In this document: one piece after another, positions 36,327 to 54,098 of the stretch | Numbering within the stretch: position 1 is the first letter of the stretch | Layout of the letters: each line of letters begins with the position of its first letter | Assembly: GCA_000004985.1 (NCBI GenBank) | Contig: GG738894.1 | Reading direction: 5' to 3' (one strand) | DNA from: Naegleria gruberi | Lineage: Eukaryota | DNA length: 64,000 nucleotides | Translations under genes and position numbers: made by a program | Notes under the pieces: generated by a model | Told to the model about the DNA's origin: nothing | The model's input: only the letters and a program-made list of their open reading frames with translations | The model's database searches: none

Positions 36327-36436
36327 AAAATATTACAAACTAAATCTTTCCACTACTTCATGAATTACCTACCATCTAAATGTACCACTTTTGATTTTGG
36401 CATTTTTTATTGAGTTTGTGAATTGTTACGTTTTTT

Positions 36437-38704
36437 TTACAATATGAGATAGTTCATTGAATTGGTCATCCAATCAATACAATAAAAATCAGAAATTACA
36501 AATATTTGATTGATAATTTCCAATCTGTTGGTGCATTTCATTAAATTGGAAGGAGGTTGCAAGTAAAGAAGGTCAACCAGGTCATTGAGATCTGATTCAT
36601 TGAGGGTAATGTCATTGTTAAGGATTATTTTGGAGGATAATCTCTCATTGAATTGTCCACTGATGAGTTTGGAGAAGAATTGGGAAGTGATTATGCAAAT
36701 TTCAGAGTCAATGGAGAGTTTCAAGTTTCGGTTCGTTTCTAATGTCAGAGTTAAATCACCCTTTCGTTTTCCACTTTTAATTTCCTCTCTCAAATAGGAA
36801 AAATAGTCCAATAAATCTTGCAATGGAAACTTAAAGTCAACTAAGGAAGCATGTTGAGAATCATTAGTTGAGTTTCTGACTTCTTCACAAATTGGCCTCA
36901 ATCTCGGAATGGATTCGCATAACATCAATTCCTCCTCAACATTATCCTTATTCGAAATTAGTGATTTTCTAATCCTATTAATGAGATAGGGATGAAGAGT
37001 TTGTTCTAATTTTTTGAATTGTAAAGTTGCCCTGAAAAGTTCAATCAAATCCAATAATTCAGCATTCAATTCTTTTCCTACGAGCCAATCTTTCAATAAT
37101 TCAACACAATTAACACTTGTTTCCATCTCAATTCCATTCTTTAATTGATCTTCCTTCATTAGTTCACTTTCGTCCAATCTTTTCATCAAAATTAAAGGTA
37201 TCAAGGATACGAATCCTTCTCTCGACTTTACAGGAATCTTTTTCATTGGTAAATTCGAATCTAGAAACCTTTCCATACCACCAATCAACTCTTGTTCACC
37301 ACAAATCTGTAAATCCAACTCAACCAAGGTGTCCAGATGAGGTTTCTCAACGCATGGATTATATCCACCAATTGAATAGCATTTCTTTTCAGAAAATATC
37401 AGAAACGAATCATAGTACATGTTCAATAAATTTGAATTGCTAATCTTGTACCATTGATTGGTGTGAATGTCAATAATCATCACTTCATTAATGTAATGTC
37501 TTCTGTCGTAGTGATCATTAATTAAACCATTCGAAACTATTAAATATCGATCCATGAATAAATTACCTCCCTTATTGTAAGATTTGATAAATTGTCGATT
37601 ATCATCATAAGAAATGAATCCTGATTTAACTAAATTTGGAGCACTAAATGCAGACCATTCCTTTTTTTGGAAGGAATAAATGTGGAGGGAGTTGGTGAGA
37701 GGACCGAAAGGTTTCTCTCTAGTCTTACCTGCATAGATTATCAATTCATCCTTTGATTCACAATACACAGAGGTGTGATAGGCAAGTTTAGTAAATTGTG
37801 GAGCAGTGGACGAAACTCTTTCGTTTGATGTAGACGAAAGAAGAGAAGAAGCAGAAGAGAAGAGCACACTTGGTACTTGAAGCATGGGATTCGCTGGTTT
37901 GATATTCATATCTTCTGATAGAAATTTCCATGTTTGACTGTCAAGATTAATCTCAATAATCTCATTCGAATATTGATCAGTGTTATATTCGTAACCTGCA
38001 ATAATGTACAGACAATCCTTTCGAATAAAACTTGAATGACCCTCTCTTCTTGGAAGTCTTTCCCTCGAATAGATATTTTTCTTTGAGATTCGAACAGGGT
38101 TTAGAATCGTCCATTCTTCAGTCTTTACGTCAAATTCGTATAGATTATTTGAGGAAATAACCGAACTTGTTCTTCCACCGAATACGTAAATCTTGTTTCG
38201 TTTAGGACAAGCACTCACCGAGTGATAGAAACAAGGATTCAGATAAATTCTACTATTAGTTGGAAGTTGATTCGTCTGATTGTTGGTAGACGAAAGTAAA
38301 GAAGGACCAACAAGTTGATTCTCAAATTCTCTACACTCTATGAATGATGGAAGTACTTTCCACTTTTTACTTTCTATATTATACTCCAAGAAACTATTCG
38401 AATTCAATTCTTTCCTCGTACTCCCGCCAAAAACATATATCTTTGAGTTTAGAATAACTGCCTTGTGTAGATGAATCCCAAATGGAAGGGAAGAAGGTAA
38501 ATCATTGGCGAGATTAGGATTATTTGTTGATTTTCTAATGGAAACTCGAGCCAAATCTTGTTTTTCCTCATAATTCGAATGTGGTTGAAAGAGAATTAAA
38601 TCAGCACCACTACTTGATGAAGAATCTTTTTGTAATTCTAACCAGTTTCCAACAGGCTTTGAGTTTCTTCCAAGTTTCGACTCTACACTTTGCAATACTC
38701 CCAT
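36437..38704 (-). CDS. Kelch-repeat protein with C-terminal BTB/POZ domain (LZTR1-like domain order)
   Basis: True ATG at 38704. Kelch blades in the N-terminal half (KIYVFGGSTRKELNSNSFLEYNIESKKWKVL, KIYVFGGRTSSVISSNNLYEFDVKTEEWTIL, LYIIAGYEYNTDQYSNEIIEINLDSQTWKFL). BTB near the C-terminus (DLTLTLETNRNLKLSIDSEICIITSQFFSKLISGQFNERLSSKIILNNDITLNESDLNDLVDLLY). Confidence 0.7.
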   Translation of the reverse strand: MGVLQSVESKLGRNSKPVGNWLELQKDSSSSSGADLILFQPHSNYEEKQDLARVSIRKSTNNPNLANDLPSSLPFGIHLHKAVILNSKIYVFGGSTRKELNSNSFLEYNIESKKWKVLPSFIECREFENQLVGPSLLSSTNNQTNQLPTNSRIYLNPCFYHSVSACPKRNKIYVFGGRTSSVISSNNLYEFDVKTEEWTILNPVRISKKNIYSRERLPRREGHSSFIRKDCLYIIAGYEYNTDQYSNEIIEINLDSQTWKFLSEDMNIKPANPMLQVPSVLFSSASSLLSSTSNERVSSTAPQFTKLAYHTSVYCESKDELIIYAGKTREKPFGPLTNSLHIYSFQKKEWSAFSAPNLVKSGFISYDDNRQFIKSYNKGGNLFMDRYLIVSNGLINDHYDRRHYINEVMIIDIHTNQWYKISNSNLLNMYYDSFLIFSEKKCYSIGGYNPCVEKPHLDTLVELDLQICGEQELIGGMERFLDSNLPMKKIPVKSREGFVSLIPLILMKRLDESELMKEDQLKNGIEMETSVNCVELLKDWLVGKELNAELLDLIELFRATLQFKKLEQTLHPYLINRIRKSLISNKDNVEEELMLCESIPRLRPICEEVRNSTNDSQHASLVDFKFPLQDLLDYFSYLREEIKSGKRKGDLTLTLETNRNLKLSIDSEICIITSQFFSKLISGQFNERLSSKIILNNDITLNESDLNDLVDLLYLQPPSNLMKCTNRLEIINQIFVISDFYCIDWMTNSMNYLIL

Positions 38705-38961
38705 TTTTTAATTTGACTAATTTACAAAAAAGGAATTTGTAAAAACGTCGTTATGTGTATTGAAAATGTTAATATTCTTCAATATTCCAATTAAATACTC
38801 GGTCATTCTTATTTTCGAATGTAATTATCTGAAACTTTTCTATCTACTCTGTTTACAACAATATGAACTTTGCTTTTCTTCATTTTCCATCTGGAACTTT
38901 GAAAAAAACATTTTTAAAATTAAATTGCTTTGAGGATCCTCAATTTGAACTTTGAAAAAAA

Positions 38962-39743
38962 ATGAGCAAAAACAAAGCTAACAATAATTCTAACAAATCT
39001 ACTGCACAAATTGTGGATAACAAATTGGACATGTCGAGTGTGAAACGTTATGTACCAAAGCAAAGATCTGCAATGGCAGGACTTAAGGAGACAGTTCAGA
39101 ATAATTCGGAGAATGGAGTGGTGACATTGGCAGGTAATAAGTTTAAAACACCCAAGTCAGTATTGTGTTTTATTCCACCAGTTGAAGTTTGGGAACCAAT
39201 TCAAGAAATTAGAAATAAGTATGCAAATGTTGCAAGATGGGTAAGTTGCTAATTTGACATGTTTTGATGATTATTGACATTCAATAGCCACAACCACACA
39301 TTTGTTTATTGTACCCTTTCGTTCCGAGTGAATTATTTGATGAAGCTGAAACTCTTTTGAAACCATCTCTTTCAAAAATCAAACCATTTGAAGTGACTCT
39401 TTCAAAATTTTCATATTTTAATACAATTGACCATTTGACAACTAAAGGACAAGGAACAATTCACTTTGAACCAGATAAGGACAGTTATGAGAAGATGAAA
39501 ATTGTACAAAAAACATGCTTTGATTTATTCCCATATTGTAATGCCTTAACAAAGAGAGGATCTTTCAGACCTCATTTAAGTGTTGGAGTTTTTGACATTG
39601 ACACTCTGGATGAAACAATGAAACAATTCAAGAGTGAATGGAAGGATTTGACATTTACATTGGATCATGTTTGTTTGATGAGTAGAGTGGATAATGAATC
39701 ACCATTTGTTATTTCACATAGAATTCCATTCGAAGGAAAATAA
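38962..39743 (+). CDS. 2H phosphoesterase superfamily protein (LigT / 2',5'-RNA-ligase / cyclic phosphodiesterase-like), two exons 38962..39240 and 39288..39743
   Basis: ORF 38962-39252 ends ..ARW followed by GTAAGT (39241). The acceptor CAATAG (39282-39287) rejoins the frame of ORF 39309-39743, whose listed start is TTG. Spliced product has a first motif P-H-I-C-L (H-x-C-x instead of the usual H-x-T/S-x) and a second canonical motif P-H-L-S-V-G. Overall size (~244 aa) fits this fold. Confidence 0.5.
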
Positions 39744-39897
39744 CTTGGTGGAATTTCATCAACTTTCGTTTGATAAATAGATTGCCAATTCGTTTTTGAA
39801 AAGGGTGGAATAACATTGTTGCTTGGCATTTAACATGCTACTAGTTCATCAATAAACTCTACTCTTTTTTTGATAAACCATAGCTTTCACCACTTAC

Positions 39898-41043
39898 TTA
39901 ATCATCCAATATTCCTATTGGTTTCATGGATGCTTGATAGTAATCCCAATCTTCATGATTATTTCTATCATGATGATTCTTTTGACAACAATTCTTCCAA
40001 CATTGAACACAAGAGAGGGCAATATTCTTTCCCTCTATTGGATTTGAAAAGTAAATTAAAACATTAAAGAAACCAACCAGTGGTGAAATAATTGTGTGAA
40101 TTAAACTCATGTAATTGGAATAATCTGTATCAGTAATGAAAAAGTTTGAAATTCTGTGAAAGGTTGGGATTATATAAATGAGAACCATCATGATTGGATA
40201 TCCCATCAATTTAGAATAGGCCTTAATTCTCTTTCCTTTTCTGTGATCATCATCTCCGATAGTACTCATACCAACTTTGAGTATAAACAATGATAAATTA
40301 ACTTCAATTATTGAAATACTACTTACCCTTTCCGAAATTCCTGCACACCTTCGCCAACACAATCATATACAACACCAAAACAAGTATAATTGAAATCCAG
40401 AGAGGTCCATAAAAAGCACCATAAGTCCAAGTAACTCCCATTGGTTTGTTCTGATCTATCCAACACCACTTTCCAGAATTTCCATAAGTACTTCCAATGA
40501 AAGGTAATCCAGTTAATAAACCAGAAACAAGAAAGACAATTGTGATGGAACAACCTTCAAATAAAAGTACTGATTTCTTCCTTGTTAATTTCCTTAGCAC
40601 AATGGATGAGAAGAGAAAGATGGCAATTACAACACTCCAAATGAAGAACCCTACAGAGAAGAATCTGTATCAATATTCAGCCATGATTATTTCATCACCA
40701 TCATCACATGGTAAATTAATTATGATCAAATCATCCAAGATATTCCTTAGTAAATAATAAGAAGAAATAACAACACTTACTGATTACAAACAGCCTGAAA
40801 TATACACACCCAATCTTGATCCGTCTTGTAGGCTGTATAGAGTGTTAGCAAGTGATTCAATGAAGCAAATAAGAGAAAGGTTTGCAAATAGGACAAGAAC
40901 CTCACTGATGGAAGCTTAAAAAACCTCCTCCGAAACACCACAATCACATAAATCAAGAATGAAAAACATGCAAGAGCACTCAGAAAGCCAGAGCATGCTC
41001 TCGCAAGTGCAATTGCTGTTTTCCACATATCTGGCGTCATCAT
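39898..41043 (-). CDS. seven-transmembrane GPCR, cAMP-receptor-like (Dicty_CAR-type) family; three exons 41043..40781, 40664..40327, 40274..39898
   Basis: Three track ORFs, each hydrophobic/TM-rich, chain through a GTAAGT donor (40780) and a GTAAGT donor (40326) with in-frame AG acceptors. Phases are consistent and the total is 326 codons. GNSGKWCWID motif in an extracellular loop is characteristic of the cAMP receptor-like family. The first acceptor is ambiguous: 40665/40666 (116-nt intron) or 40635/40636. Confidence 0.5.
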
Positions 41044-41499
41044 ATTTTCTTTTTTTCTTCCAATAACAAGATTTACTCTGTTGCTCTCCGAACTGTAATG
41101 ATGAAGATATTATATCAGATTGAATGATAATCTCGCTGGACTAGTACGATAATTATAGACGAGAGCAAACAAAGGGATACTTACTCCTCTCTTTAATATA
41201 ATCTTGTTATTTATTGTTGGTTGTTCTTCACTTTAAATAACATAAAGTCTTCAGGGTTGGTATCAGTCAACATTTAACAACATCAAAACCAATAAATGAT
41301 GAAGATTATTACTTCTGTCAATTACCGATTAATGATGAAGAAGTGGTAAAACCCCCATGATGAGTATTCCGTGTTTTAATTGTTTAATGTAAATTACATG
41401 TTGGTGATGCTGTTGACTGGAGAGGTGTGAATTAGCCAAACATTTTATTTTTTTTAAATTTTAAAATCATTATTCTTATTTGTAACGACTTGTTTAATA

Positions 41500-42708
41500 T
41501 TATTGTAAATGGCATGACTTTTTTTGTTTTTTCTTAAAAGCAGGATCATTCCACATATTGATACCTCTGACCATCACTTGGTGAAGGTCAGCCATTCCAC
41601 TATTGTTAATAGCACCTACTTCAACATAGGTGAAACATCCCATTCTTCTGGCCAGCAGTATTCCTTGCTCAGTACTTGATGGTTTTCTATGTCTCTTAAC
41701 CAGTAGCTCCCTTCTCTTGATTGGATCATCCCTTAAATCAGTTTTGGTACAAATCAGAATAATTAGACTATTTGGATGGAGGCGATTGATTTCAACAATC
41801 CATTTCGAATAAACGTTACGAAGGGAGGTCTCTAATGAACAGCTAAAGCAAATACAGAACATGTCAGTCCCAGGGTAAATATATCTGCGCAATCTTCAAT
41901 GTTTTGTTATAATAATTTAAAATCAATTGACTATTTGATAATTACCTATCGAATTCTGTAAATCATTCAATGAAGAGAATATTCTTAATTGACTTACCAT
42001 AATGTCCTTCAGAATCATGTAATTCCAAATGACAAACTCTTTCATCGACCAAACAATTCTTTGAGTAATTGTCAGATGAAGTTGTTGGTAAATGTTCATA
42101 TTGTGGAAACGAATCTGTACTAAACGTGTACAATAAACTGGTCTTACCAACAGTGTCATCTCCTTAATTCCCAATAATTTAATGAAAATAATTGAAAATA
42201 TTTCACACATACCCACTAGAACTATTTTGTAATGACTTGAAGTTACATTACTATTCAATTTGTAGTTTAGTATATCTTCCTTAGGTACATAAATATCATT
42301 CCACGCATAATAACCTTCAATTTCTCTCGTCAGCTCTTGCTGTTCTCTTTCTGCATTAATCATCCACTCTCCAACTAATTCAATCAAATGTTGCTTGTAA
42401 TTTTCAGTATATTCCACATGTTTAGTATAAAGTTCAGATTGTAAAATCACAACATCATATGTTCCTGTTGTCTTATTCCATCGGTTGGTCTTACTGGCCT
42501 CCGAAAACCAATGAATCCTCTCCATGTAATAATCTTTCCAATATTGATCTTCTGTTGTCAGTTGACATATTCTCAATTGTTTAGAAGCTAATTGTAATTT
42601 ACACAAATCTGTAATTTGCAGGAAGGAAAGAACCAATCGGAAAATGTCATCATTCAGCACAGAATTATTAATGTTGAATTCCGACTGTTTCTGTTTTTTA
42701 TGTATCAT
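41500..42708 (-). CDS. F-box-like domain fused to an atypical Rho-family small GTPase with polybasic tail and CAAX box; at least three exons (42708..42213, 42162..~41998, ~41893..41500)
   Basis: ORF 41923-42729 (track start GTG; first ATG 42708, MIHKK..) has the F-box-like LNDDIFRLVLSFLQITDLCKLQLASKQLRI. About 120 aa later it ends ..SSHYKIVLVG at a GTATGT donor (50-nt intron). It continues in frame as DDTVGKTSLLYTFSTDSFPQYEHLPTTSSDNY..LELHDSEGHY (G1 P-loop, switch regions). A GTAAGT donor at 41997 leads to exon 3 (ORF 41500-41892): RRYIYPGTDMFCICFS..WIVEINRLHPNSLIILICTKTDLRDD..FKKKQKKSCHLQ, with G4 TKTD, a polybasic tail and CAAX CHLQ. The exon 2/3 junction phase is ambiguous. An alternative weak donor AA|GTCAAT at 41994 gives a frame-consistent 353-codon model. 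Confidence 0.55.
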
Positions 42709-43027
42709 ACTTTTAATCAAAAAAAACACGTGAAATTTGTTCTGTTGATTGTGATGATATTTTTTTGAGAATATTGTAAAGGTGTTTGTAGTTGTTCTTA
42801 GTTCATCATATTAGCACAAGTTAACCACTACTGGGTAGGGAAGGAAACTTAGTTTTGATTTTTGTAAACAGTTGGCAACTGGCCTATATTCATTGAGTTT
42901 GTTTTGATGGATAAATTTTGTTATGAGAGTGATGAATTAATCTTTAATTTTAAAATTCGAAAAGTGGAATTCTTCATATTATTTAGAACTGTGAACTTGG
43001 TGTGAACCACCTGCTTTAAAAAGAAGA

Positions 43028-43711
43028 ATGCAAACTTCATCTCTTACAACAACATATCAAAAAGAATACCTCCACAACAACAAGATGCAACAACAACCAA
43101 AAGTCAACATTATCGAGCAAGGAAACATTTGGACCATTGAAAATCTTTACTCACCAGAAGAATGTCAACAACTCATCAAGATTTGTGAATCGAATGGATT
43201 TGTGGAAGCTCCATTCAATGCCAATATGGCCAAAGATACAAGAAATAACGATAGAGTGATTCTTGATTTACCACAACATGCTCAATTGTTTTGGGAAAGA
43301 GTTTCACCTTATTTACCTCAACATGCTTCTCAATTGGGAAATCAAGTATTGGAAAGTAATGCAAAATCTGGATTTCAATTGTTAAATCCAGGATTTTCGA
43401 ATAGATTGAGATTCTACAGATATAAGAAGGGTCAATATTTTGCTCCCCACACAGATGGTTGTTATTTTGATAATAGAGATAAATATGTGGACCAGTCATT
43501 CTTGACAATCTTGCTCTATTTGAATGATGTCAATAATGCTGGAGGAGAAACTAATTTTATTCAAAATGGAATCAAACATAGTGTTCAACCAAAGAGTGGA
43601 TCTGTGTTGATATTTGTGCATTGGAATTGTCACGAAGGTGCTGAGGTGACATCTTCTAATGCTTTGAAGTATGTTATGAGAACAGATGCAGTTTTTAGAA
43701 GAATTAAATAA
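43028..43711 (+). CDS. 2-oxoglutarate/Fe(II)-dependent dioxygenase, prolyl 4-hydroxylase-like (P4Hc)
   Basis: True ATG at 43028. HxD...H iron ligands (YFAPHTDG ... FVHWNCHEGAEV). Basic 2OG-binding residue in KYVMRTD. Typical ~225-aa jelly-roll size. Confidence 0.7.
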   Translation: MQTSSLTTTYQKEYLHNNKMQQQPKVNIIEQGNIWTIENLYSPEECQQLIKICESNGFVEAPFNANMAKDTRNNDRVILDLPQHAQLFWERVSPYLPQHASQLGNQVLESNAKSGFQLLNPGFSNRLRFYRYKKGQYFAPHTDGCYFDNRDKYVDQSFLTILLYLNDVNNAGGETNFIQNGIKHSVQPKSGSVLIFVHWNCHEGAEVTSSNALKYVMRTDAVFRRIK

Positions 43712-43771
43712 AAATCAATCTGATCTGATAGACAGATGTAAAATTGTTCTGAGCCTCAAAGCAAAATCAAT

Positions 43772-43842
43772 TGCATTAGCCGGGAGTCGAACCCGGGTCA
43801 CCAGCTTGGAAGGCTGGTATGATACCGTTACACTACTAATGC
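43772..43842 (-). tRNA. tRNA-Gly (anticodon UCC)
   Basis: Reverse complement reads GCATTAGTAGTGTAACGGTATCATACCAGCCTTCCAAGCTGGTGACCCGGGTTCGACTCCCGGCTAATGCA. Perfect 7-bp acceptor stem (GCATTAG/CTAATGC). Anticodon stem CCAGC/GCTGG with loop CTTCCAA. T-arm CCGGG-TTCGACT-CCCGG. No encoded CCA (eukaryotic type). Confidence 0.85.
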
Positions 43843-43930
43843 TCTTGTCCCTTAATAATAATTCCCAACATTATTAAAATCTATTAAGGAACAGAATTGC
43901 CACCAAAATAATGCAAAGCAAAATTTCAGA

Positions 43931-44011
43931 CGCAGACTGCAGGATTCGAACCTACGAAGGTTTCCCCAACAGATTTCAAGTCTGTCGCCTTAACCACTCG
44001 GCCAAGTCTGC
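43931..44011 (-). tRNA. tRNA-Ser (anticodon UGA) with long variable arm
   Basis: Reverse complement reads GCAGACTTGGCCGAGTGGTTAAGGCGACAGACTTGAAATCTGTTGGGGAAACCTTCGTAGGTTCGAATCCTGCAGTCTGCG. Perfect acceptor stem GCAGACT/AGTCTGC, discriminator G. Anticodon stem ACAGA/TCTGT, loop CTTGAAA. Long extra arm typical of Ser. GGTTCGAATCC T-loop. Confidence 0.85.
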
Positions 44012-44080
44012 TACATTTGGGTAAGAAATATTACAAATTTGTGCAATCTAACAATGACTGTTTTAGATGTCATTCAAAAT

Positions 44081-45754
44081 TTATTGATTGGATTCCTTGT
44101 AGGATTGAGCTACTAACTTCATTAGTTCTTTTCGATCGAGATGTGGATTCTTATCTTTTAGTTTCTTGTAATTTTCCTTCATAAATAAATTATACTTGGT
44201 TGGTTGCTTGGTTTTTCCAATTGGTTCCAATATTCCAGTGCAAACTCCACACCTTTGTTTTGTGGTATCAACAGATTTGGAATGTCTCTTTACAATTGAT
44301 CCACAATCCGTGCATTGCCACTGATATTTATATTCAATATCGTATGAGTGGCAAGTCGTGATTGGAATGTCAGGATAGTATTTCTGAATAATTCCACCAT
44401 ATAAATAAAATGTTTTACCATGGCCTGTAATGCCGTCGAACATAAATGAAGCAGCATGACACATTTCGTGAGCTAGTGTATGAACAAGTCTCTCTTCACA
44501 ATCACAAACCTTTGTGGACATTTCAATGGCACATACCTTGATTTGTGATTTAGTGATTGTAAAGAGTTTACACAACCCAGCAGTTTTCCTCAAATGTTGA
44601 TTCCATAATAAATATGCTTTCCCTTTCAGATCTTTAGCCTTACCCTTTGTAACTTTCATAGCTGGAAGTTTGTTTTGGAAGCATACCTTGTTGAATTCGT
44701 CATAATATTTCTGTAATAAATCATCTCTGACCTTTTTGAATTTTTTGGCATCCATCTTTTCAAAAGTTAATGTCTTTGAATTTTTGGAACTTTTTGCTGG
44801 CTTTTTGTTAGTTAATATGGATTTTTCATGGAAATCATCATCATCGTCATCAATTTCAATAACATTGGTATCAATCTTGTTTTTTGGGTTGGATTTTGTT
44901 TTCGTTTTGGATTTCTTAATTTGTGGACTTTCTGCTTCCATTTCGTCATAGTCCTCATCATCGTCATCATCCTCTCCACTACTTTCAGCATATTCCTCAT
45001 CACTCTCCTCGTCAAAGTTGAAATCCTCTTCATCAGATGATATTGCTTCCTCCTCCTCCTCCTCAGAAGAATCACTCAGCTCAAAAGCATTCTTTTTCTT
45101 TTCCTCCTCCTCAAATTCCTCAATAATATCCTGCCCCACAATATCAGATTCTTTCACCCAAGTATTTTCACTACTTGGATATCCCTCCCATTTCACATAG
45201 TATTCAACAAGCTTATTTTTCACTCGTTTTTTAATGATCCTTTCAATGGAATAAACATCATCTTTCTCCTTATCCTTCTCAAAATCATATTCTTCCTCAG
45301 AATCTGAATGATCCTCAATCACTCGCTTTCCAAATGATTTTCTCGATTTTCTTCTCACTGGCGAAGTGTTTGCCATCTCTTCATCACTTTCATCATCATC
45401 ATCGGAAATAGCAATCACAACTCTTTCATTAAATTCATTTCCAGATTTTCCGTGATGGTGATGATCAGCAGCTTCTTGAGTGGCTAATAGTGGTGGTAAT
45501 GTTGCTTGCTCCTCCTGGAAATGTACAGTACTTCTTCTTGGTAATTCCTGCTCTTCTTCCTTCTTTAATAGTGCAATTGGTTGCTCAGGAAGAGTGTTAT
45601 CACTTTCGGAAAGGAGACCTTTTGGAAGAATCGTCTCTGGATTCGAAAAGAAATCATGCCAAGTAATTGAACGCCATCCAAATTCGTTACACATGTTCAA
45701 GTATCGATTACGAGTTACTTCATATGAAAATTCTTGTTCTTGATAAATATTCAT
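44081..45754 (-). CDS. SprT-like zinc metalloprotease of the GCNA/ACRC type (acidic disordered region, SprT HExxH domain, zinc finger, C-terminal HMG box) with an embedded chromodomain
   Basis: True ATG at 45754. Long D/E-rich tracts. Chromodomain DDVYSIERIIKKRVKNKLVEYYVKWEGYPSSENTWVKESDI. SprT motif LVHTLAHEMCHAASFMFDG (HEMCH). Cys cluster CTDCGSIVKRHSK...CGVC. HMG-box-like PTKYNLFMKENYKKLKDKNPHLDRKELMKLVAQSYK at the C-terminus. Confidence 0.7.
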   Translation of the reverse strand: MNIYQEQEFSYEVTRNRYLNMCNEFGWRSITWHDFFSNPETILPKGLLSESDNTLPEQPIALLKKEEEQELPRRSTVHFQEEQATLPPLLATQEAADHHHHGKSGNEFNERVVIAISDDDDESDEEMANTSPVRRKSRKSFGKRVIEDHSDSEEEYDFEKDKEKDDVYSIERIIKKRVKNKLVEYYVKWEGYPSSENTWVKESDIVGQDIIEEFEEEEKKKNAFELSDSSEEEEEEAISSDEEDFNFDEESDEEYAESSGEDDDDDEDYDEMEAESPQIKKSKTKTKSNPKNKIDTNVIEIDDDDDDFHEKSILTNKKPAKSSKNSKTLTFEKMDAKKFKKVRDDLLQKYYDEFNKVCFQNKLPAMKVTKGKAKDLKGKAYLLWNQHLRKTAGLCKLFTITKSQIKVCAIEMSTKVCDCEERLVHTLAHEMCHAASFMFDGITGHGKTFYLYGGIIQKYYPDIPITTCHSYDIEYKYQWQCTDCGSIVKRHSKSVDTTKQRCGVCTGILEPIGKTKQPTKYNLFMKENYKKLKDKNPHLDRKELMKLVAQSYKESNQ

Positions 45755-46136
45755 TTTTTTTAAATGTTAATTTTCCAAATATTTTGGCGCCAAAGTGATG
45801 TGCAATATTGATGAATTTATTGGAAATTAGCCATTTCATAGACCTCCTCAATGAGTGTAACAAAACAACTTCCTTAACTCACGGGAAATATATTAATTAG
45901 GAGTTTGGATTGGTTTGAGTAGTCCTTGGAGAGTTGGTGCAGACCAACAATTCATCTTTGATTTCAACATGATAATAGTCTTACAAATACTTTACAACAT
46001 TATGTGGAGATGATCTCATCCGAATCATGGAGAGCTATTCGAGTCATACACTTCAATCCGGAGTTGCTCCTCTCTATAAAAGATAGTGAAACTTGTAAGC
46101 AACTCCATAACAATTGAAAAAAAAACTGTGATCGTA

Positions 46137-47120
46137 ATGAAAACTTTCCAATCTACAACTATTGCAATCATTGCAGCAACATGCATGCTCATTGCCATGA
46201 TGCTCTCATGCACCAATGCTCAACGTTTGTCTACTCAATTCGGTCACTTGATGAGCTCACAAGCTCTGATCAAGCAAATTAATTTGGATCCACAATCAAC
46301 ATTTAAAGCTCAATTGTATCCAAGATTTGAGTGGGGTCATGTGTTGGTGAAATTAAAATGAAGGTCAATGTGGTGCTGTTTGGGCAATGGTAAGTTTTTT
46401 AATTCCGATCTAAATGATCAATAATTATTATTTTGCAATTTCGAATATTAATTTTTATTGGAAACCATTTAGGTTCCAAGTGCTACAGTTTCTGATAGAA
46501 TGTGCGTTCAATCGAGTGCTAAATTCCAAGAAAGATTATCCACCCAATATATTTTGGAATGTGATACTAGAGATTTTGGATGTAATGGTGGTTATTTGAA
46601 TACTGAATTCGAATTTGAATTAAAGAGAGGTATTCCAACTGAAAAATGTGTTCCATACTCTGCTGTTAATGGTACTTTGGCTAATTGTCCATCCAAATGT
46701 GTCAATGGTGAACCATTAGTTTTATACAAGACTAAGGCAGTTCAAAACCTTACTGGAGAGCATGATATGCAACAAGCCATCTTACAAGGAGGAAGTATTA
46801 TGACAGAACTTGACATGTATCAAGATTTCCTCTATTATTCCAGTGGTGTCTATCAACATTCTGCAAATTTGAGACAACCAATTGCTAAGTTTGTTGTCAG
46901 AATTATTGGATGGGGAGTTGAAAATGGTGTTAAATATTGGATTGTTCCAAATATTTGGGGTAAAACATGGGGAATGCAAGGTTATATCTGGATTCGTGTA
47001 AGTATTGAAGGAAATTATTTTTAAATTTAATTTATAATATTTATTACAATTATTGTAAAATAGAGAGGTAATAATGAAAGTAATATTGAAAAGGATGCAT
47101 TCGCTTTCCAAGTTTACTAA
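46137..47120 (+). pseudogene. cathepsin B-like (papain-family C1) paralogue, copy A, with disrupted pro-region exon
   Basis: Signal peptide MKTFQSTTIAIIAATCMLIAMMLSC. Relative to copy B it lacks ~140 nt of the propeptide/mature junction and shifts frame, giving an in-frame TGA at ~46358 before the conserved NEGQCGAVWAM. Exon 2 (46473..46997) and exon 3 (47064..47120) are intact and introns (83 and 66 nt) are conserved with copy B. Catalytic Cys and His are substituted as in copy B. Confidence 0.45.
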
Positions 47121-47241
47121 ACAACTTCATCCATACACAAACTATTCAATAAAATAATTGAGTTTTAAAATAATTATACCAAATCAATATATAATATATA
47201 TACTCGTTTATTAATTCCATTTAATGGACATCCAATCATAT

Positions 47242-47291
47242 NNNNNNNNNNNNNNNNNNNNNNNNNNNNNNNNNNNNNNNNNNNNNNNNNN
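47242..47291. other. scaffold gap (50 N)
   Basis: Run of 50 n immediately 3' of the phospholipase-B-like gene stop codon. Confidence 0.99.
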
Positions 47292-47293
47292 GT

Positions 47294-49002
47294 TTATTCC
47301 ACATGGCTGAACTTGGCAGGGCATTGACCATTCCAAACAAAGACTGGTTGATCAACACTGGTTGGTCCATTGATAATGTGAACAGTGTTAATGTCGAGAA
47401 TTGAAGAAACCTTAGTATCATAACCTCCACTGCAGCTTCTTGTAGCATCAGTAGCAGTTGGAGACAAATCATTTCTGCTCGAAATGGAATAGCCAGGTTG
47501 ACCAAGAGAAAGTGGATCATACTTCCAATTGTTATATCTAAGAAGATTCTTAATAGTATCAATTGAGTTGACCTTATTTTGATCTCTTCTAAAAATGTTA
47601 GCTCTAACACATGTTTCATAGGACAACATGTCTGAGGCATTTGGTCTCTTTAAGATTTCAGGATATCCAGAAATTGTGAAAACTTCCTTATAGAATGGAA
47701 CATTGTAACTAGGCCAGTATCCATAGCTGAGAATTTGAGTTTGATCAGCACCAATAACCTTTCCTGGAATTTGCTCAACAACCCAAAACAAGTCATTGGC
47801 AAGTGGTTGGCCAGGAACGAACTTTTTAGTATCCAAAACCATGAATTGATTATTGTAAGTACCAGAGTTATATTCAGAAAAGATTTTACTCCATGAAGGA
47901 GCATCATCAGCAAGTCTGTTGGCTAAAATAACTCTTTGCCAACACAACAATGATTCTGGTTTGAGTAAATCATATAAGGAAGTGTTGAAAATATTGTTGG
48001 AAGTCTCAATAACAACTAATCCATTTTGAGTAATGTAAAAATCATCATTTGAAGCAAGTGTAGCTGGGTAACCAGAGAATGTGACCTTTGGTGAAGCAAC
48101 CAATTTGTTATTGAAATTGAAAGTGTAAGTCTTATAGATACGACTGAAATTTTCAATGATATAATGATAATGGTTAGAAAACAAACTTACGTCATAGCTG
48201 CAAACACGAACCACGAATTATGTCCAAAGTAGATATTACTGAAATCTGGTGCGACCTTGAAGATGGCAGAGCAGTGACCATTGTCTCTGGCGAATTGTAA
48301 AATTTGAGCTGAGGTCATCTTGTTAAAATTTGGTCTGAAATCCTTCTTAACATTGACAATATCAAACAAGTCACCAGAAGCACTCATTACTTGCAATTCA
48401 GCATAACTAATTTTTTCTGAACTATTTGTAGTGGCATAATTGTAACCATCAAGCAAACCCTCCATTTGCAAATAAACAGTTCTGACCTGTTGCCAGAACG
48501 GATCGTTGGCATACTTGGCAGATGAATCTCTAACCCAAGCACGTTGAGACTCCAAGAAATCTCTCACATATTGTGGCATCTTCTTATCAGGATTCTCAGC
48601 CCACACATACGTATTCAAATTAACAAAGTGATTGTAAATTCTCTTCCTTGTCAAGACTCCTTCCAAATAACCGGCAGCATAACTTTGCAATTCATCCTTT
48701 ATCAATCCATTGGTTTCAATAGAGAGAACATCCCATCCTTTTGCCTCATAACTATCATCATAATGTGCTGCAGCAATACCCGATCGCAGATTATAAACTC
48801 CATTCCTAACTATGTAATTCCCATTTTCATAGTAAAAGGTGGCATCGAGAGCCAAAACCTTGTTGGAGGCTTCATTTAAAACACCACAAACAATCAAGAG
48901 TCCGAGGATAAGTAAAAGAAGTGGTGATTTGTTCATTTTTTTTTTATCAAGACTATTAATGTGAACCTTACGGAGATGTAAGCTATAGAATGGAATTTTC
49001 AT
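47294..49002 (-). CDS. phospholipase B-like protein (PLBD/LAMA family), two exons 49002..48191 and 48143..47294; probable signal-peptide start at ATG 48936
   Basis: Family-typical segments GWDVLSIETN, YAAGYLEGVLT, IYNHFVN. ORF 48187-49002 ends ..FAAMT at GTAAGT (48190). A 47-nt intron and acceptor TTTCAG rejoin the frame of ORF 47294-48214 (..RIYKTYTFNFNN..). 812+850 nt = 554 codons. MNKSPLLLLILGLLIVCG looks like the signal peptide. The stop lies 3 nt from a 50-N gap. Confidence 0.7.
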
Positions 49003-49089
49003 GTTTTAAATATAATAGATTTTTAACAAATATTTACATTATATTTAGCACAAATAATTAAATTTTCAATACTACCAAACAAATAAAAA

Positions 49090-50121
49090 ATGGACAAAAT
49101 CACACCACAAGCCATTCTTCATGCCGAAAAAATAATTCGTTCCGTAGGCGTGAAGAAAACCTCCCTCGACACTTGTCTTTCTCTGTCCAACCAGAAAAGA
49201 GCCATTTTGTTTAAATGTGAAAATGAACAAATTACAGGATCTTTCAAGATGAGAGGAGCCACTCATAAATTAATGCAATACATGATGAAAGAGGATGATA
49301 ATTTGAAAAAGAGAATTTGTACTGCATCGTCTGGAAATAATGGATTTGCTGTGGCGTATGTAGCTAAAGCATTTGGATATAATGCAACTGTGTTTGTGCC
49401 TGAAAATGCAGACACGGCAAAGATTGCAAATATTAGAGATGTGATGGGAGCAGATATTAGATTGTATGGTGAAAATTGTTTGGATACTGAATTGTTTGCA
49501 AAGAAATATGCACAAGAGAATGGAATTCCATATTTCTCACCATACAATGATTCAGATATTGTTATGGGACAAGGAACAATTGGTGTGGAAATTGAGGAAC
49601 AATTGAATGAAATTATGAAAAATAGAGGAGGTTCAATTAATGGAATTAAATTGGAAGATGATGGATCAAATCTTAATGTTTATGTATCAGTCGGAGGCGG
49701 TGGATTAATTGGTGGAATAGCTCGCTACCTTAAACATGCCTTCCCTAAATGTAATATAATTGGATGTCAACCACAAAATAGTGCTGTCATGTACCATTCA
49801 GTTAATGCAGGTAAAATTCTGGAAGTTGTTGAAGAATTTGATACAATCAGTGATGGAACTGCTGGCTTAATTGAAGTAGATACAGTCACATTCGAGATTT
49901 GTCAACAATTTGTGGATCGATATGTCCTCTCAACTGAAGAGGAAATTCTCTCATCACTCAAATTCCTCCTCCTGAAAGAACATACTCTAGTAGAAGGTGC
50001 AGCTGCTTGTGCTTTGGCCTGCCACTTGAAAGATGATCAATGTAAAGATAATTCGATCAACGTGATTGTTTTATGTGGAAAGAATATTTCCTCTGAAAAG
50101 ATTAAAAAGATTTTACAGTAA
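49090..50121 (+). CDS. PLP-dependent serine/threonine dehydratase family enzyme (threonine dehydratase / serine racemase-like)
   Basis: True ATG. PLP-lysine motif ITGSFKMRGA. TASSGNNG and GGGGLIGG glycine-rich loops typical of the fold-type II family. 343 aa. Confidence 0.8.
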   Translation: MDKITPQAILHAEKIIRSVGVKKTSLDTCLSLSNQKRAILFKCENEQITGSFKMRGATHKLMQYMMKEDDNLKKRICTASSGNNGFAVAYVAKAFGYNATVFVPENADTAKIANIRDVMGADIRLYGENCLDTELFAKKYAQENGIPYFSPYNDSDIVMGQGTIGVEIEEQLNEIMKNRGGSINGIKLEDDGSNLNVYVSVGGGGLIGGIARYLKHAFPKCNIIGCQPQNSAVMYHSVNAGKILEVVEEFDTISDGTAGLIEVDTVTFEICQQFVDRYVLSTEEEILSSLKFLLLKEHTLVEGAAACALACHLKDDQCKDNSINVIVLCGKNISSEKIKKILQ

Positions 50122-50647
50122 TACTTTTAATTAAATTATTAATAATTTTATTTTCAATTAAATTTTTACTAATTTTTTTCAAAAAAAATGAGTACTGTTC
50201 TGATTGCTTGCTATTCGGAATCGATGATGAACACGAGAAGCTGATTATCTAAATTGTTTTTGAATTGATGATCATCATTATGATGATTTTCGATAAAAAA
50301 GCATTGAAATGAAGACAAATAAACCTATACTCGATGAACTGAAGATTCCGAAATGTAATGATCACGAACTGGAAGTAATTTTAATAAAATCAAATATTCA
50401 TCACCAAGTTAACTAATCTTTTCCGATCCAAAGCTTGGGGTTATTGGCTTTAAATAGAAACCACTTCAATAATTAGAAGAAAGAAACCATTCAACAGTAA
50501 TTTTCGATCGTCATAAGGACGATTTGAAATCCAGTGCACTACTTCCTTCTTAATTATTAAAAAATTTTGTTTAAAAAATACCTCAAATCTAATAGAATCA
50601 ATAAGTATATTAAATTTTATTGCTCATACATTAATAAGGATACAATC

Positions 50648-51184
50648 ATGTTAGAATCAAACATTAAGGTACATCTTGAGAATATTAGTATCACTGGAGT
50701 AGATAAAAACGAACTTTCGTATATGATAGCGAATGGAGGTGCGTTCACCACTTTAATTGTTAAAGCCATGCTAAGGGGAAATGAGGAGCAAATTAAAAAG
50801 GAGGTTAATGATTTTTTGAACACCACAGACAAGGCAATAATAGAGATTTTCCTTTCCTTATCCTGTAGGTATCAAATTGAGGATGATGAGCATGATTGTA
50901 AATTCTTGGACAGGATTAATCCTCAAGAGTTTAGCAGAAACATACAATCAATTCCTAAACCTCAATTCTTAAAAGATATATTCAGCTTTAAAAAGGCTCC
51001 ATTCCTGGATGGAATGAGAAAATTAATAACATCACATCGAATTGCATTTGAGAAGGAAGAATTAGAAGCAATTGAAGCAAGAAAGTTGCTATTCGGTGAA
51101 GATGTTCAACAAAAAAAATCGACTAAGAAAAAAGCTGCCACTAAAACAATTAAAAAAAGCTACCAAGAGAAGAAGAAAGAATAA
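50648..51184 (+). CDS. hypothetical protein with Lys-rich C-terminus
   Basis: ORF 50567-51184. The track start is TTG; the first ATG is at 50648. No recognisable domain. C-terminal KKSTKKKAATKTIKKSYQEKKKE. Confidence 0.4.
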   Translation: MLESNIKVHLENISITGVDKNELSYMIANGGAFTTLIVKAMLRGNEEQIKKEVNDFLNTTDKAIIEIFLSLSCRYQIEDDEHDCKFLDRINPQEFSRNIQSIPKPQFLKDIFSFKKAPFLDGMRKLITSHRIAFEKEELEAIEARKLLFGEDVQQKKSTKKKAATKTIKKSYQEKKKE

Positions 51185-51466
51185 AGTTTGTTGATTGTTT
51201 AGGAGCTATTCTCTACCATGTCGCAAGACCTGATATTACAAACTATGCTCAGTACAACTCTATAGTTAATAAAGCTAAATCTCAATAATGCCAAACAAAA
51301 GTATCTCATTAAATAACCTCTTCTTATTTCAGATCATTGATCAAAGTAATTGTTATATTCATCGAATCGGTATTGAAAGAATGTAATTGGACAACAAGGT
51401 ATGAATTGAATAGTTGGAGGTATTGGTATGTGTTCCACTTGTATAGTGTTGTGTTTGGTTTTGTAC

Positions 51467-52716
51467 TCAAAGAGTCTCAAGCCCTCTGATTGATAATGGT
51501 AAACCTCTGGCATCAAGGTATTGCAACGAGTCCAAGTTGACTAGAAATTCAACTCCCTGATCATTAATAGAAGTTGCAGGAACAGAGAGTCTTTGGAGGT
51601 TTTTCATTTGGGAAAGATAAAGAGCTCCCAACTTGGTAATCATGTGATTTGTGCCAATTTGGAGATCTCGTAAACTGGCCATTTTAGAAATATATTCAAC
51701 TCCCTTATCGTTCATACAAGTGTTTGTTAAATTCAATTCTCGTAAATTAGTCAATTTAGAAATCAAGACTGCTCCTAGTTGACCAATCGGGTTATCGTTC
51801 AAAATGAGTGTCTTTAAAGTTTTCATTTTCACAAGATATTCAACACCTTCTGCATCAATTTCATTAAATCCCAAATAAAGAACTTCCAAACTGAGTATTG
51901 CTAAAGAATTTGGTTATTTTCTAAATGTAAACATTTCAAAGATGTTATTCTATATATGTGTTCCAACCCAATTCCACTAATATTAGTATTATTCAATCCA
52001 AGAAATGTCAAAGTTCTCATATTAGAAATGCATTCAGCATGTAAATTACCAATCTTGTTGAGCTCCAAATTAAGATGACTTAGTGATCCAAATTCTAATA
52101 ACAGATTGATGTCTTTCAGTTCTAATTCACAATTCACTAGCTCCAATAATTTCAAATGCTTCAATCTAGTCAAGTTCTTCAACTCTCCATTGTAATAATT
52201 CTTATCTAACTGTAATTCTTTTAAACTCTGAATTTGTGAAATATAGGAAAATACTTTTGGCTCCAAAACACAATGATCAATTTCCAATCTCTTTAAACCC
52301 TTCAATTTGGATACATAATATGAATTATCATCCGAAAGTAAACTCTTTTTCAATTTTAAAACTTGTAAATTTTCAAAATAGGGAAAACATTCCATCACCC
52401 CCAAACCAATCTCACAGAATTCTGCTCTTTCCATTCCAAAAAACAATCCATCGTCACAAAAATTCCAAAAATCTTCATTGGTTTGTAATTCCAATCCAAG
52501 TTTTCGTCCTACATTGAAAGAGAAGGGACATTCCCTTATAATTTGCTGCCACTTCTTACAAACTAGTCGGAAATAGGAAATCAATTCAATTCCTTCTATG
52601 AAAGGAAAGATGTTATCTCGTAATATGTCATCAGGCAGTCCGTAAAATTGTGATTGTATGGAAGAATGGAAGCACAAACACGAGTAGCTGGTAGTATCCT
52701 GATGTGTTGTTGACAT
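51467..52716 (-). CDS. F-box-like / leucine-rich-repeat protein, apparently frameshifted at ~51895 (sequencing error or pseudogene)
   Basis: True ATG at 52716. F-box-like LPDDILRDNIFPFIEGIELISYFRLVCKKWQQII followed by ~24-residue LRRs. ORF 51901-52716 stops at ..ENNQIL*. The downstream ORF 51467-51889 continues the LRR register (LEVLYLGFNEIDAEGVEYL...) but in the -1 frame. There is no room for an intron. Confidence 0.5.
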
Positions 52717-52943
52717 TTTTTTGTAAAGTTCATCCTATAATGACGTACCAGACACATGGTTTTAAACGTTGAACTAATTTACAATTTTACATGACTTGGC
52801 TCAAGTAATGGACTTTAATTGCTTGAAGAGATGCAATATATCTCTGACAAGATTTAAACAATTTGTTCACATAGTCTTAATTATTAGGATTCAGAATCGA
52901 ATAGATGATAAGTAATATCACAACGTTTCTCAACATTTTAGTG

Positions 52944-54098
52944 TTATATACTTGATATGTCAGGGAATTTCTCACGTATTTCCAACATGAATTTGTTATC
53001 CCTTCTTAGCTTTTCTCCAATAAATGTATCAAGGTTTACATGGTGATTGTGTGAAGGATCTTTGTATGATAATCCTATTCCCAACATTACAATTTCCTTA
53101 TCATTTTTGTACATGTTTGGAAGGCTGTATACAACTCCATTCTTTAAGCATCGAATGACCAGATCTCTATCTTCCAATAAATTATGTGGTAAATAATTCA
53201 GAATATTATTATTGATATCGAGAGAAAGATATTGTTCTGTGATTTCTCTTGTTTTAAACATATTGTTCATAAAGCAATAAGATATTCCATTTCTTTGAAA
53301 TACTGCCTTGGCAATATCCGTATCTGTAATCAAATGATCTGGGATGAAGCTAAAGATGTCATATGATACATAGTTTGTCTTTTGAATCAATAAGAGGAGA
53401 AATTCTTTGGTTAGAATTGATTTGTGTACGCAACCTAAATCTGAACATCTTTTGCCTATACAAATTTGAACTATCTCTGTGTCCATTCTAAAATTATTGG
53501 GAAATATAAAAAGTGGAGCATTATTGTGTACCAATTTCAGAACATTTTCTCTCTTTTCTCTAATTGGTTCTGGAAACTCACGATAGGAGAATATATTTGC
53601 CTTCACAGATTCCAGGAAGAAGTTTTCATCGTTTTGCAATCTATCACTAATTAGCTCAACATTCTTGGGGTTCTTTTTGATAGCTGCCATAGCAATTTCC
53701 TTGTCATCCAAAAACTGTTGAGGTATTTCTCTAGCAATAAATCTCAAAGAAAATGATTGAGTCATGACCATTAGCTTGACAATTTCTCTGTCATTATAAA
53801 ATTGTTTCGGTACTGAAATATCATACTTGCAACAAAGTGTCCTCAACACAAATGCTCTATCCTGTTGAAACTCCTCAGGTAAATGAGAATAGAGTGGATA
53901 TGATTTCAGAGCAGCAAGACAAATATTCCTATTCCTCTTCAACACTTCATTGCAATGAAAGTAAAACAGACCATATTGGGAAACTAATTTCAAAGCAACT
54001 CGATAACAATCTCTCAATTGTTGAGGAATTTGATTAAAAACTTTTACAGTCCTAATTAAATGTGCAATCTTTCCAATCACGTATTCATTTCCTACCAA
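52944..54098 (-). CDS. DUF4116-type repeat protein, 5' end unresolved
   Basis: Repeated ~35-aa units of the DUF4116 kind (NRNICLAALKSYPLYSHLPEEFQQDRAFVLRTL; DKEIAMAAIKKNPKNVELISDRLQNDENFFLESVKAN; DTEIVQICIGKRC..). The frame stays open to ~54266 without any in-frame ATG. The track start is TTG. Confidence 0.55.
   Translation of the reverse strand: MVGNEYVIGKIAHLIRTVKVFNQIPQQLRDCYRVALKLVSQYGLFYFHCNEVLKRNRNICLAALKSYPLYSHLPEEFQQDRAFVLRTLCCKYDISVPKQFYNDREIVKLMVMTQSFSLRFIAREIPQQFLDDKEIAMAAIKKNPKNVELISDRLQNDENFFLESVKANIFSYREFPEPIREKRENVLKLVHNNAPLFIFPNNFRMDTEIVQICIGKRCSDLGCVHKSILTKEFLLLLIQKTNYVSYDIFSFIPDHLITDTDIAKAVFQRNGISYCFMNNMFKTREITEQYLSLDINNNILNYLPHNLLEDRDLVIRCLKNGVVYSLPNMYKNDKEIVMLGIGLSYKDPSHNHHVNLDTFIGEKLRRDNKFMLEIREKFPDISSI

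Follow-up and report, generated by a model that had tools for sequence, protein, structure and literature searches.

The stretch of DNA analysed here (the window) comprises 64,000 nucleotides of contig GG738894.1 from the Naegleria gruberi assembly GCA_000004985.1. Its minus strand carries an open reading frame (ORF) of 557 codons without internal stop, which encodes a GCNA-type SprT metalloprotease with a chromodomain set into its acidic disordered region (Table 1). The ORF product is identical over its whole, equal length (100% identity) to the deposited protein XP_002672982.1 (EFC40238.1; UniProt D2VSR1_NAEGR), for which the deposited annotation reads 'SprT domain-containing protein'. From the sequence alone, the initial annotation of this locus had proposed a GCNA/ACRC-type protease for DNA–protein crosslinks (DPCs) with a well-formed chromodomain inside its acidic region and an HMG box at its C-terminus. 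The combination of a chromodomain with a GCNA-type architecture was confirmed at this locus, far beyond what would be expected by chance.

Domains were assigned by a Pfam scan and modelled with AlphaFold2 from 50 aligned family members, and the model was compared with the Protein Data Bank (PDB) using Foldseek. All four domains (SprT-like, Chromo, Zn_ribbon_SprT, and HMG_box) exceeded the curated Pfam cut-offs, which backs both the chromo and the HMG assignment of the initial annotation. The predicted local distance difference test (pLDDT) reached about 95 for the folded parts, i.e., chromodomain, protease, zinc ribbon, and C-terminal helices, and stayed below 50 for the acidic linkers. To retrieve homologues, HMMER was run exhaustively against 1.84 billion representative proteins and yielded 4,061 matches at E <= 0.001, of which 1,509 were at E <= 1e-10. 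The best 150 matches were checked for chromodomains by hmmsearch with a chromodomain hidden Markov model (HMM) and by phmmer with the HP1 chromodomain. Besides the N. gruberi protein, four sequences had the chromo plus SprT architecture, namely those of Naegleria lovaniensis, Naegleria fowleri, and Willaertia magna and one metagenomic sequence; these five are henceforth called the orthologues. Naegleria and its sister genus Willaertia are both members of the family Naegleriidae. Among the best 150 matches, the combination was restricted to Naegleria/Willaertia representatives, and the other GCNA relatives were without a chromodomain.

The protease was placed in the GCNA/ACRC family. Its named homologues are the GCNA/ACRC proteins of mammals and insects (E ~1e-25), and D2VSR1_NAEGR is itself part of the supplementary GCNA family list of Carmell et al. 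(2016). All four components that define the family are present: a disordered acidic N-terminal region (pLDDT below 50; net charges of -14 for residues 51-160 and -27 for residues 221-335), an SprT domain (PF10263) with HExxH motif and a third histidine, a C2C2 zinc finger straight after the protease (PF17283; cysteines C481, C484, C502, and C505), and a two-helix HMG box. The metal ligands and the catalytic residue of the protease (H429, E430, H433, H445) as well as the four cysteines were invariant in 50 GCNA relatives. A profile of these relatives matched human SPRTN (6mdw, E 4.6e-16), with HEMCH...HG aligned to HEMIH...HG, and also the HMGB1 boxes (E 2.8e-8), while Foldseek matched the modelled protease to the same SPRTN structure (E 2.9e-6). 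Given their invariance and their alignment to the SPRTN active site, the catalytic residues appear fit for activity.

The C-terminal HMG box required closer inspection. The Pfam HMG_box match (residues 516-554) scored 26.0 bits versus a cut-off of 25.4 and covered profile positions 3-41 of 69; a weak YABBY match (residues 512-549) lay over the same stretch. Exactly two helices were predicted here (residues 520-535 and 541-556, pLDDT ~97), and the five orthologues have their C-terminus at a common position. A two-helix HMG box is a hallmark of GCNA proteins, from which the plant YABBY proteins are derived (Carmell et al. 2016, PMC5098910), and both partial matches are explained thereby. Hence, the HMG box of the initial annotation stands as an assignment but not as a full box. 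A missing 3′ exon that would complete the box was rejected, as the orthologues end alike, two tRNA genes follow downstream, and two helices are the family norm.

Membership in the Spartan lineage was likewise rejected. The alignment of the protein with both families showed a protease of GCNA type rather than Spartan type: its identity to a human SPRTN fragment is 26% (E 9e-5), and Willaertia has a separate SPRTN orthologue, which is 40% identical to the SprT domain of human SPRTN (E 3e-31). A pattern scan of the Naegleria protein returned neither a PIP nor an SHP pattern, and its Pfam matches did not include a UBZ-type zinc finger. Membership in the Wss1 lineage was discarded as well, since the Pfam and PDB searches were without a WLM or Wss1 match. 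The Willaertia SPRTN gene (JBEGDK010000100.1, 2623-3927 (+), 434 residues) lies directly upstream of the chromodomain-bearing GCNA gene on the same strand and encodes three SUMO-interacting-type motifs at its C-terminus (LIVIDD, IIIIDD, IIEID). Such a SPRTN neighbour was not seen in the N. gruberi window or at the N. lovaniensis locus.

The chromodomain is of the canonical HP1/Polycomb type according to both the AlphaFold2 model and Foldseek. Three strands (residues 170-179, 182-189, and 198-201) are followed by a C-terminal helix (residues 208-227), so that the modelled fold reaches slightly past the Pfam coordinates; the string YYVKWEGYPSSENTWVKESDI is located within the domain at residues 185-205. 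The best Foldseek match was the chromodomain of Drosophila HP1 solved with histone H3 dimethylated at lysine 9 (1kna; template modelling (TM) score 0.92, root-mean-square deviation 0.7 Å over 50 columns, 48% identity), which was also the best match of the PDB sequence search (E 5.6e-14). It headed a long series of chromodomains of HP1, Polycomb, and CBX types solved with methylated peptides. The aromatic cage, named as a check by the initial annotation, is intact: Y24, W45, and Y48 of HP1 correspond to Y168, W189, and Y192 in the alignment, and E52 of HP1 corresponds to E196. Among the orthologues, Y168 and W189 are invariant, and the third position is Y or F. The likeness to HP1 is limited to the reader domain, i.e., the protein is not an HP1: the Pfam scan gave no Chromo_shadow match in it, and outside the reader it is a GCNA.

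Averaged over all pairs of the five orthologues, identity was 0.75 for the protease, 0.67 for the zinc ribbon, 0.58 for the chromodomain, and 0.51 for the HMG box, compared with 0.18 and 0.20 for the acidic regions a and b on either side of the chromodomain, which can hardly be aligned. The chromodomain, with 19 of 54 columns invariant including the cage, is therefore under constraint relative to the disordered regions that flank it. Within these regions, a motif scan returned two candidate SUMO-interacting motifs. The first has a hydrophobic core followed by a serine and acidic residues, and its residues I114, S117, and D118 are invariant in all five orthologues; the second is partially conserved and less so than the first. 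Ahead of the acidic arm, the N-terminal module follows the pattern …RxRYLxMxxEFGWxSIxWxDFFSxPExxLPKGL. Thirteen of the first 50 residues are invariant in the orthologues, and a helix was predicted for residues 5-25 (pLDDT ~77). The module (residues 8-48) matched no family in the Pfam scan; it could be a docking motif particular to this branch of GCNA.

Table 1. Features of the chromodomain-bearing GCNA gene, with positions in the window
Feature	Position	Strand	Description
Whole GCNA gene	44081..45754	-	single-exon ORF, 557 residues plus stop; XP_002672982.1 / D2VSR1_NAEGR
N-terminal module	45611..45733	-	residues 8-48 (EFSYEVTRNRYLNMCNEFGWRSITWHDFFSNPETILPKGLL); predicted helix and aromatic-rich segment
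Acidic disordered region a	45263..45610	-	residues 49-164; pLDDT <50
Candidate SUMO-interacting motif 1	45377..45421	-	residues 112-126 (VVIAISDDDDESDEE); motif scan
Acidic-aromatic motif EEEYDF	45281..45298	-	residues 153-158; marks the chromodomain insertion point
HP1-like chromodomain	45107..45253	-	Pfam Chromo, residues 168-216, E 1.6e-14, 54.0 bits
Acidic disordered region b	44750..45073	-	residues 228-335; pLDDT <50 for most of residues 237-317
Candidate SUMO-interacting motif 2	44834..44863	-	residues 298-307 (VIEIDDDDDD); motif scan
SprT-like zinc metalloprotease domain	44348..44713	-	Pfam PF10263, residues 348-469, E 1.3e-18, 67.3 bits
HEMCH motif	44456..44470	-	H429, E430, H433; third histidine H445
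C2C2 zinc ribbon	44225..44332	-	residues 475-510; Pfam Zn_ribbon_SprT PF17283, 36.6 bits
Two-helix HMG box, C-terminal	44087..44209	-	residues 516-556

The insertion point was delimited by alignment with the closest relatives that are without a chromodomain (P0063, P0006, and P0008; 38-47% identity to the Naegleria protein). An HMM of the N-terminal module built from the five orthologues matched all three of them (41.6, 28.6, and 40.1 bits, respectively). Where the Naegleria protein has EEEYDF, the MAFFT alignment showed EEEYVF, EEEYQF, and EAEFDF in these relatives, followed by SUMO-interacting-type stretches. The chromodomain forms a clean block of about 60 residues right after this EEEYxF motif, at the same position in all five orthologues. 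The motif, in the form [DE]EE[YF]xF, is found in four of the five chromodomain-bearing orthologues (it is degenerate in Willaertia) as well as in the relatives without a chromodomain, and it may be a short linear motif on its own account. A gene for a 2OG-Fe(II) oxygenase lies near the P0006 gene on its 64.6-kb Joint Genome Institute contig (448-1170 (-)) and encodes a protein 33% identical to that of the Naegleria neighbour (E 5e-29). The shared nearness of a homologous oxygenase gene suggests that P0006 is a positional orthologue without the chromodomain. The proximity of oxygenase and GCNA may be conserved microsynteny; the orientation of the two genes relative to each other differs between N. 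gruberi and the P0006 contig. Gain of the chromodomain in the stem of the Naegleriidae is the simplest reading, with loss in other lineages as the alternative. A further protein, P0072 (383 residues), is made up of six tandem chromodomains with about 39% identity each to that of Naegleria and has no SprT domain; it is an unrelated protein. When the 73-residue chromodomain segment was used to query an index of 5.8 billion proteins for its nearest relatives, no entry had enough 5-residue words in common with it.

The oxygenase gene adjoins GCNA in the window at 43028-43711 (+). Genes for tRNA-Ser(UGA) (43931-44011 (-)) and tRNA-Gly(UCC) (43772-43842 (-)) are located 70-310 bases downstream of GCNA; both are on the GCNA strand, within the 370 bases that separate GCNA from the convergent oxygenase gene, the closer one being 70 bases from the GCNA stop codon. 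Further Pfam-assigned neighbours within 34755-54098 are a Kelch-repeat protein (36437-38704 (-)), a papain-family C1 peptidase fragment (46500-47024 (+)), a pyridoxal phosphate-dependent enzyme (49090-50121 (+)), a leucine-rich repeat protein (51901-52716 (-)), and a DUF4116 protein (52944-54098 (-)), for which a functional tie to GCNA is not apparent. Bases 1-16943 of the window are N, the remainder has a G+C content of about 33%, and there are two assembly gaps of 50 N (47242-47291 and 61121-61170). A phospholipase B gene abuts the first of these gaps, and its coding sequence is split across the overlapping ORFs 47294-48214 (-) and 48187-49002 (-), indicating an intron or frameshift there.

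Taken together, the protein is the Naegleria orthologue of GCNA/ACRC; it is probably a SUMO-binding protease that has gained a methyl-lysine reader, by which it would be tethered to chromatin of the H3K9me or H3K27me type (histone H3 methylated at lysine 9 or 27). As a GCNA/ACRC protein, it would be an SprT-family zinc metalloprotease that takes proteins covalently trapped on DNA off the DNA. Into its disordered arm, right after the EEEYxF motif, a canonical HP1-type chromodomain would have been inserted within the Naegleriidae, and the three-residue aromatic cage of this domain would bind a methylated lysine within an ARKS-type sequence, with H3K9me and H3K27me as the most likely targets; histone H3 of N. 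gruberi has ARKS at both K9 and K27. Such binding may enrich the protease at chromatin with methyl marks (heterochromatin or repeats) or at the methylated histones themselves. The SUMO-interacting motifs would pick out SUMOylated crosslinked proteins, the zinc ribbon and HMG box would contact DNA, and the long flexible acidic linkers could let the tethered protease reach nearby adducts. Recruitment by SUMO-interacting motifs has been proposed for the disordered arms of GCNA (PMC5098910). Mutant zebrafish in ACRC accumulate DPCs of histone H3, Top1/2, Dnmt1, and Parp1 (PMC13092972), and work on Drosophila Spartan/MH ties DPC proteases to satellite DNA, in a model that has been widened to cover all of the family including GCNA (PMC11210505). 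A stronger version is put forward tentatively, and it may well not hold: the Naegleriidae would have hard-wired a histone-mark reader onto a DPC protease, making it directed by chromatin state and preferentially clearing crosslinked proteins, possibly methylated H3 itself, from H3K9me/H3K27me repeat chromatin. If true, this would be a natural single-polypeptide link from heterochromatin to DPC proteolysis, comparable to the link between the Spartan family and satellite DNA inferred from Drosophila evolution.

Several points weigh against this interpretation. Protease activity, SUMO binding, methyl-lysine binding with its specificity, and chromatin targeting are all predicted from sequence and structural model, as opposed to the architecture, the catalytic and cage residues, the predicted folds, the conservation, and the distribution in the sequences searched, which come directly from the analysis. 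The availability of H3K9me and H3K27me in N. gruberi is likewise judged from its H3 sequence. Outside the cage, groove positions differ from HP1 in the alignments (e.g., E56 to V200 and D62 to V/F206). The sequence does not show which mark or sequence context the domain prefers, and its methyl-lysine ligand may lie outside the histones. Restriction to the Naegleriidae holds for the best 150 of the 1,509 matches, and a distant chromodomain-bearing GCNA could have been missed. Lastly, chromodomains are among the most often shuffled reader domains (bioRxiv 10.1101/2021.11.30.470311), and the fusion may therefore be modest in function.

Three other explanations were weighed against the reader interpretation. 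The chromodomain may serve as something other than a methyl-lysine reader, binding nucleic acid, dimerising, docking another protein, or contacting the disordered arm of its own protein in an autoregulatory manner. Some chromo-like and chromo-barrel domains do bind nucleic acid, dimerise, or dock proteins, and the groove substitutions given above would suit such a role, as would a Tudor-knot match that is weak in the N. gruberi protein (E 0.68) and stronger in P0002 (E 4.4e-4). The best PDB matches, however, are structures of canonical chromodomains (HP1, Polycomb, CBX) in complex with methylated peptides, and the three cage aromatics and E196 are present, with the cage kept in all five orthologues. 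As for autoregulation, the orthologues do not conserve the sole internal RKS-type stretch (residues 131-139), and the ARKS-like pseudo-substrate RRKSRKS within it (residues 132-138) was dropped as a candidate ligand for that reason. A non-reader role is hence considered rather unlikely.

Less likely still is that the domain is a neutral or decaying leftover of shuffling, or of a transposon-derived insertion into a tolerant region. Disordered linkers do tolerate insertions, chromodomains are often carried by retrotransposons and lineage-specific fusions, and the present fusion was seen in a single family of amoeboflagellates among the matches checked. A functionless remnant would nevertheless have to keep its cage and its 19 invariant columns between flanks that have diverged to 0.18-0.20 identity, and to stay at an identical position in all five orthologues; moreover, Pfam families of reverse transcriptases or integrases were absent from the called genes flanking the N. 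lovaniensis and W. magna orthologues. An annotation or assembly artefact, in which a small chromodomain gene and an adjacent GCNA gene were read as one, is effectively excluded. No point in its support was found. The N. gruberi ORF runs without a stop between the domains, and the same arrangement recurs in the independent N. lovaniensis, N. fowleri, and W. magna assemblies and on the metagenome contig. In N. lovaniensis (PYSW02000016.1), one exon holds the chromodomain together with the first half of SprT, and a short intron (~5387-5450) follows just before HEMCH; W. magna has the whole gene in a single exon, and the N. gruberi gene is intron-free as well. GCNA relatives that have no chromodomain likewise begin with the N-terminal module that precedes it here, and the 5′ part of an N. 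fowleri RNA-seq transcript in the supplement of Carmell et al. begins at the same N-terminus. The split of the gene model that the initial annotation had allowed for is thereby ruled out.

Regarding novelty, the initial annotation had not recognised the combination from described GCNA proteins. No paper describing GCNA/SprT together with a chromodomain was found in literature searches, in which two broad reviews containing all terms were left unopened, and the combination is described neither in Carmell et al. 2016 (PMC5098910) nor in the 2026 ACRC paper (PMC13092972). In passages of a survey of chromatin-reader co-occurrence, the only SprT-like architecture is a transposon fusion without a chromodomain. 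The protein as such was, however, catalogued in 2016, and the chromodomain annotation is already public: databases hold the precomputed Pfam domains, and the UniRef name of the N. lovaniensis orthologue is 'Chromo domain-containing protein'. GCNA membership is thus already published, and the new element appears to be the chromodomain and the discussion of the combination. It is a lineage-specific addition of a reader domain to a known protease family and not a new type of system.

Substrate targeting of GCNA/ACRC is still credited in large part to the SUMO-binding motifs of a disordered arm that evolves quickly, and a clade with a folded, conserved, putative methyl-lysine reader in this arm gives a simple handle on the question. 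The prediction is that, at least in these amoebae, chromatin state positions the protease, which would fit the recently reported build-up of H3 crosslinks in the absence of ACRC and the co-evolution reported for Spartan-family proteases and satellite DNA. As the chromodomain is small and soluble, the targeting hypothesis is cheap to check. The reach of the finding is moderate, since it concerns a non-model organism and a domain accretion confined to one lineage; it does indicate that the four-component definition of GCNA is not the full repertoire of the family.

Compared with known systems, the protein is closest to GCNA/ACRC (human ACRC, C. elegans GCNA-1, Drosophila Gcna): both have an acidic disordered arm bearing SUMO-interacting-type motifs, an SprT protease with an HExxH motif, a C2C2 zinc finger, and a two-helix HMG box. 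It differs in the HP1-like chromodomain within the disordered region and the N-terminal module of about 40 residues, both of which lie outside the four-component definition. With SPRTN/Spartan (human SPRTN, Drosophila MH) it has in common the SprT fold, the zinc ligands, and the principle of a DPC protease steered by appended recruitment modules, but the candidate modules here are a chromodomain and SUMO-interacting-type motifs, and PIP-box and SHP motifs are not recognisable. Yeast Wss1, of the WLM family, is similarly a metalloprotease that depends on DNA, and its guidance is attributed to SUMO-interacting motifs (PMC5098910), yet it has a WLM domain instead of a GCNA-type SprT domain and is without zinc ribbon, HMG box, and chromodomain. 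The plant YABBY proteins share the zinc finger and the two-helix HMG box, which Carmell et al. derive from GCNA, whereas the protease, missing in YABBY, is kept in the Naegleria protein. The resemblance to HP1/CBX comprises the fold, the aromatic cage, the acidic stretch before the domain, and the identity to the Drosophila HP1 chromodomain given above; unlike these proteins, the Naegleria protein has neither a chromoshadow domain nor the HP1 hinge, and its chromodomain would be a lone reader in a protease rather than part of a heterochromatin scaffold.

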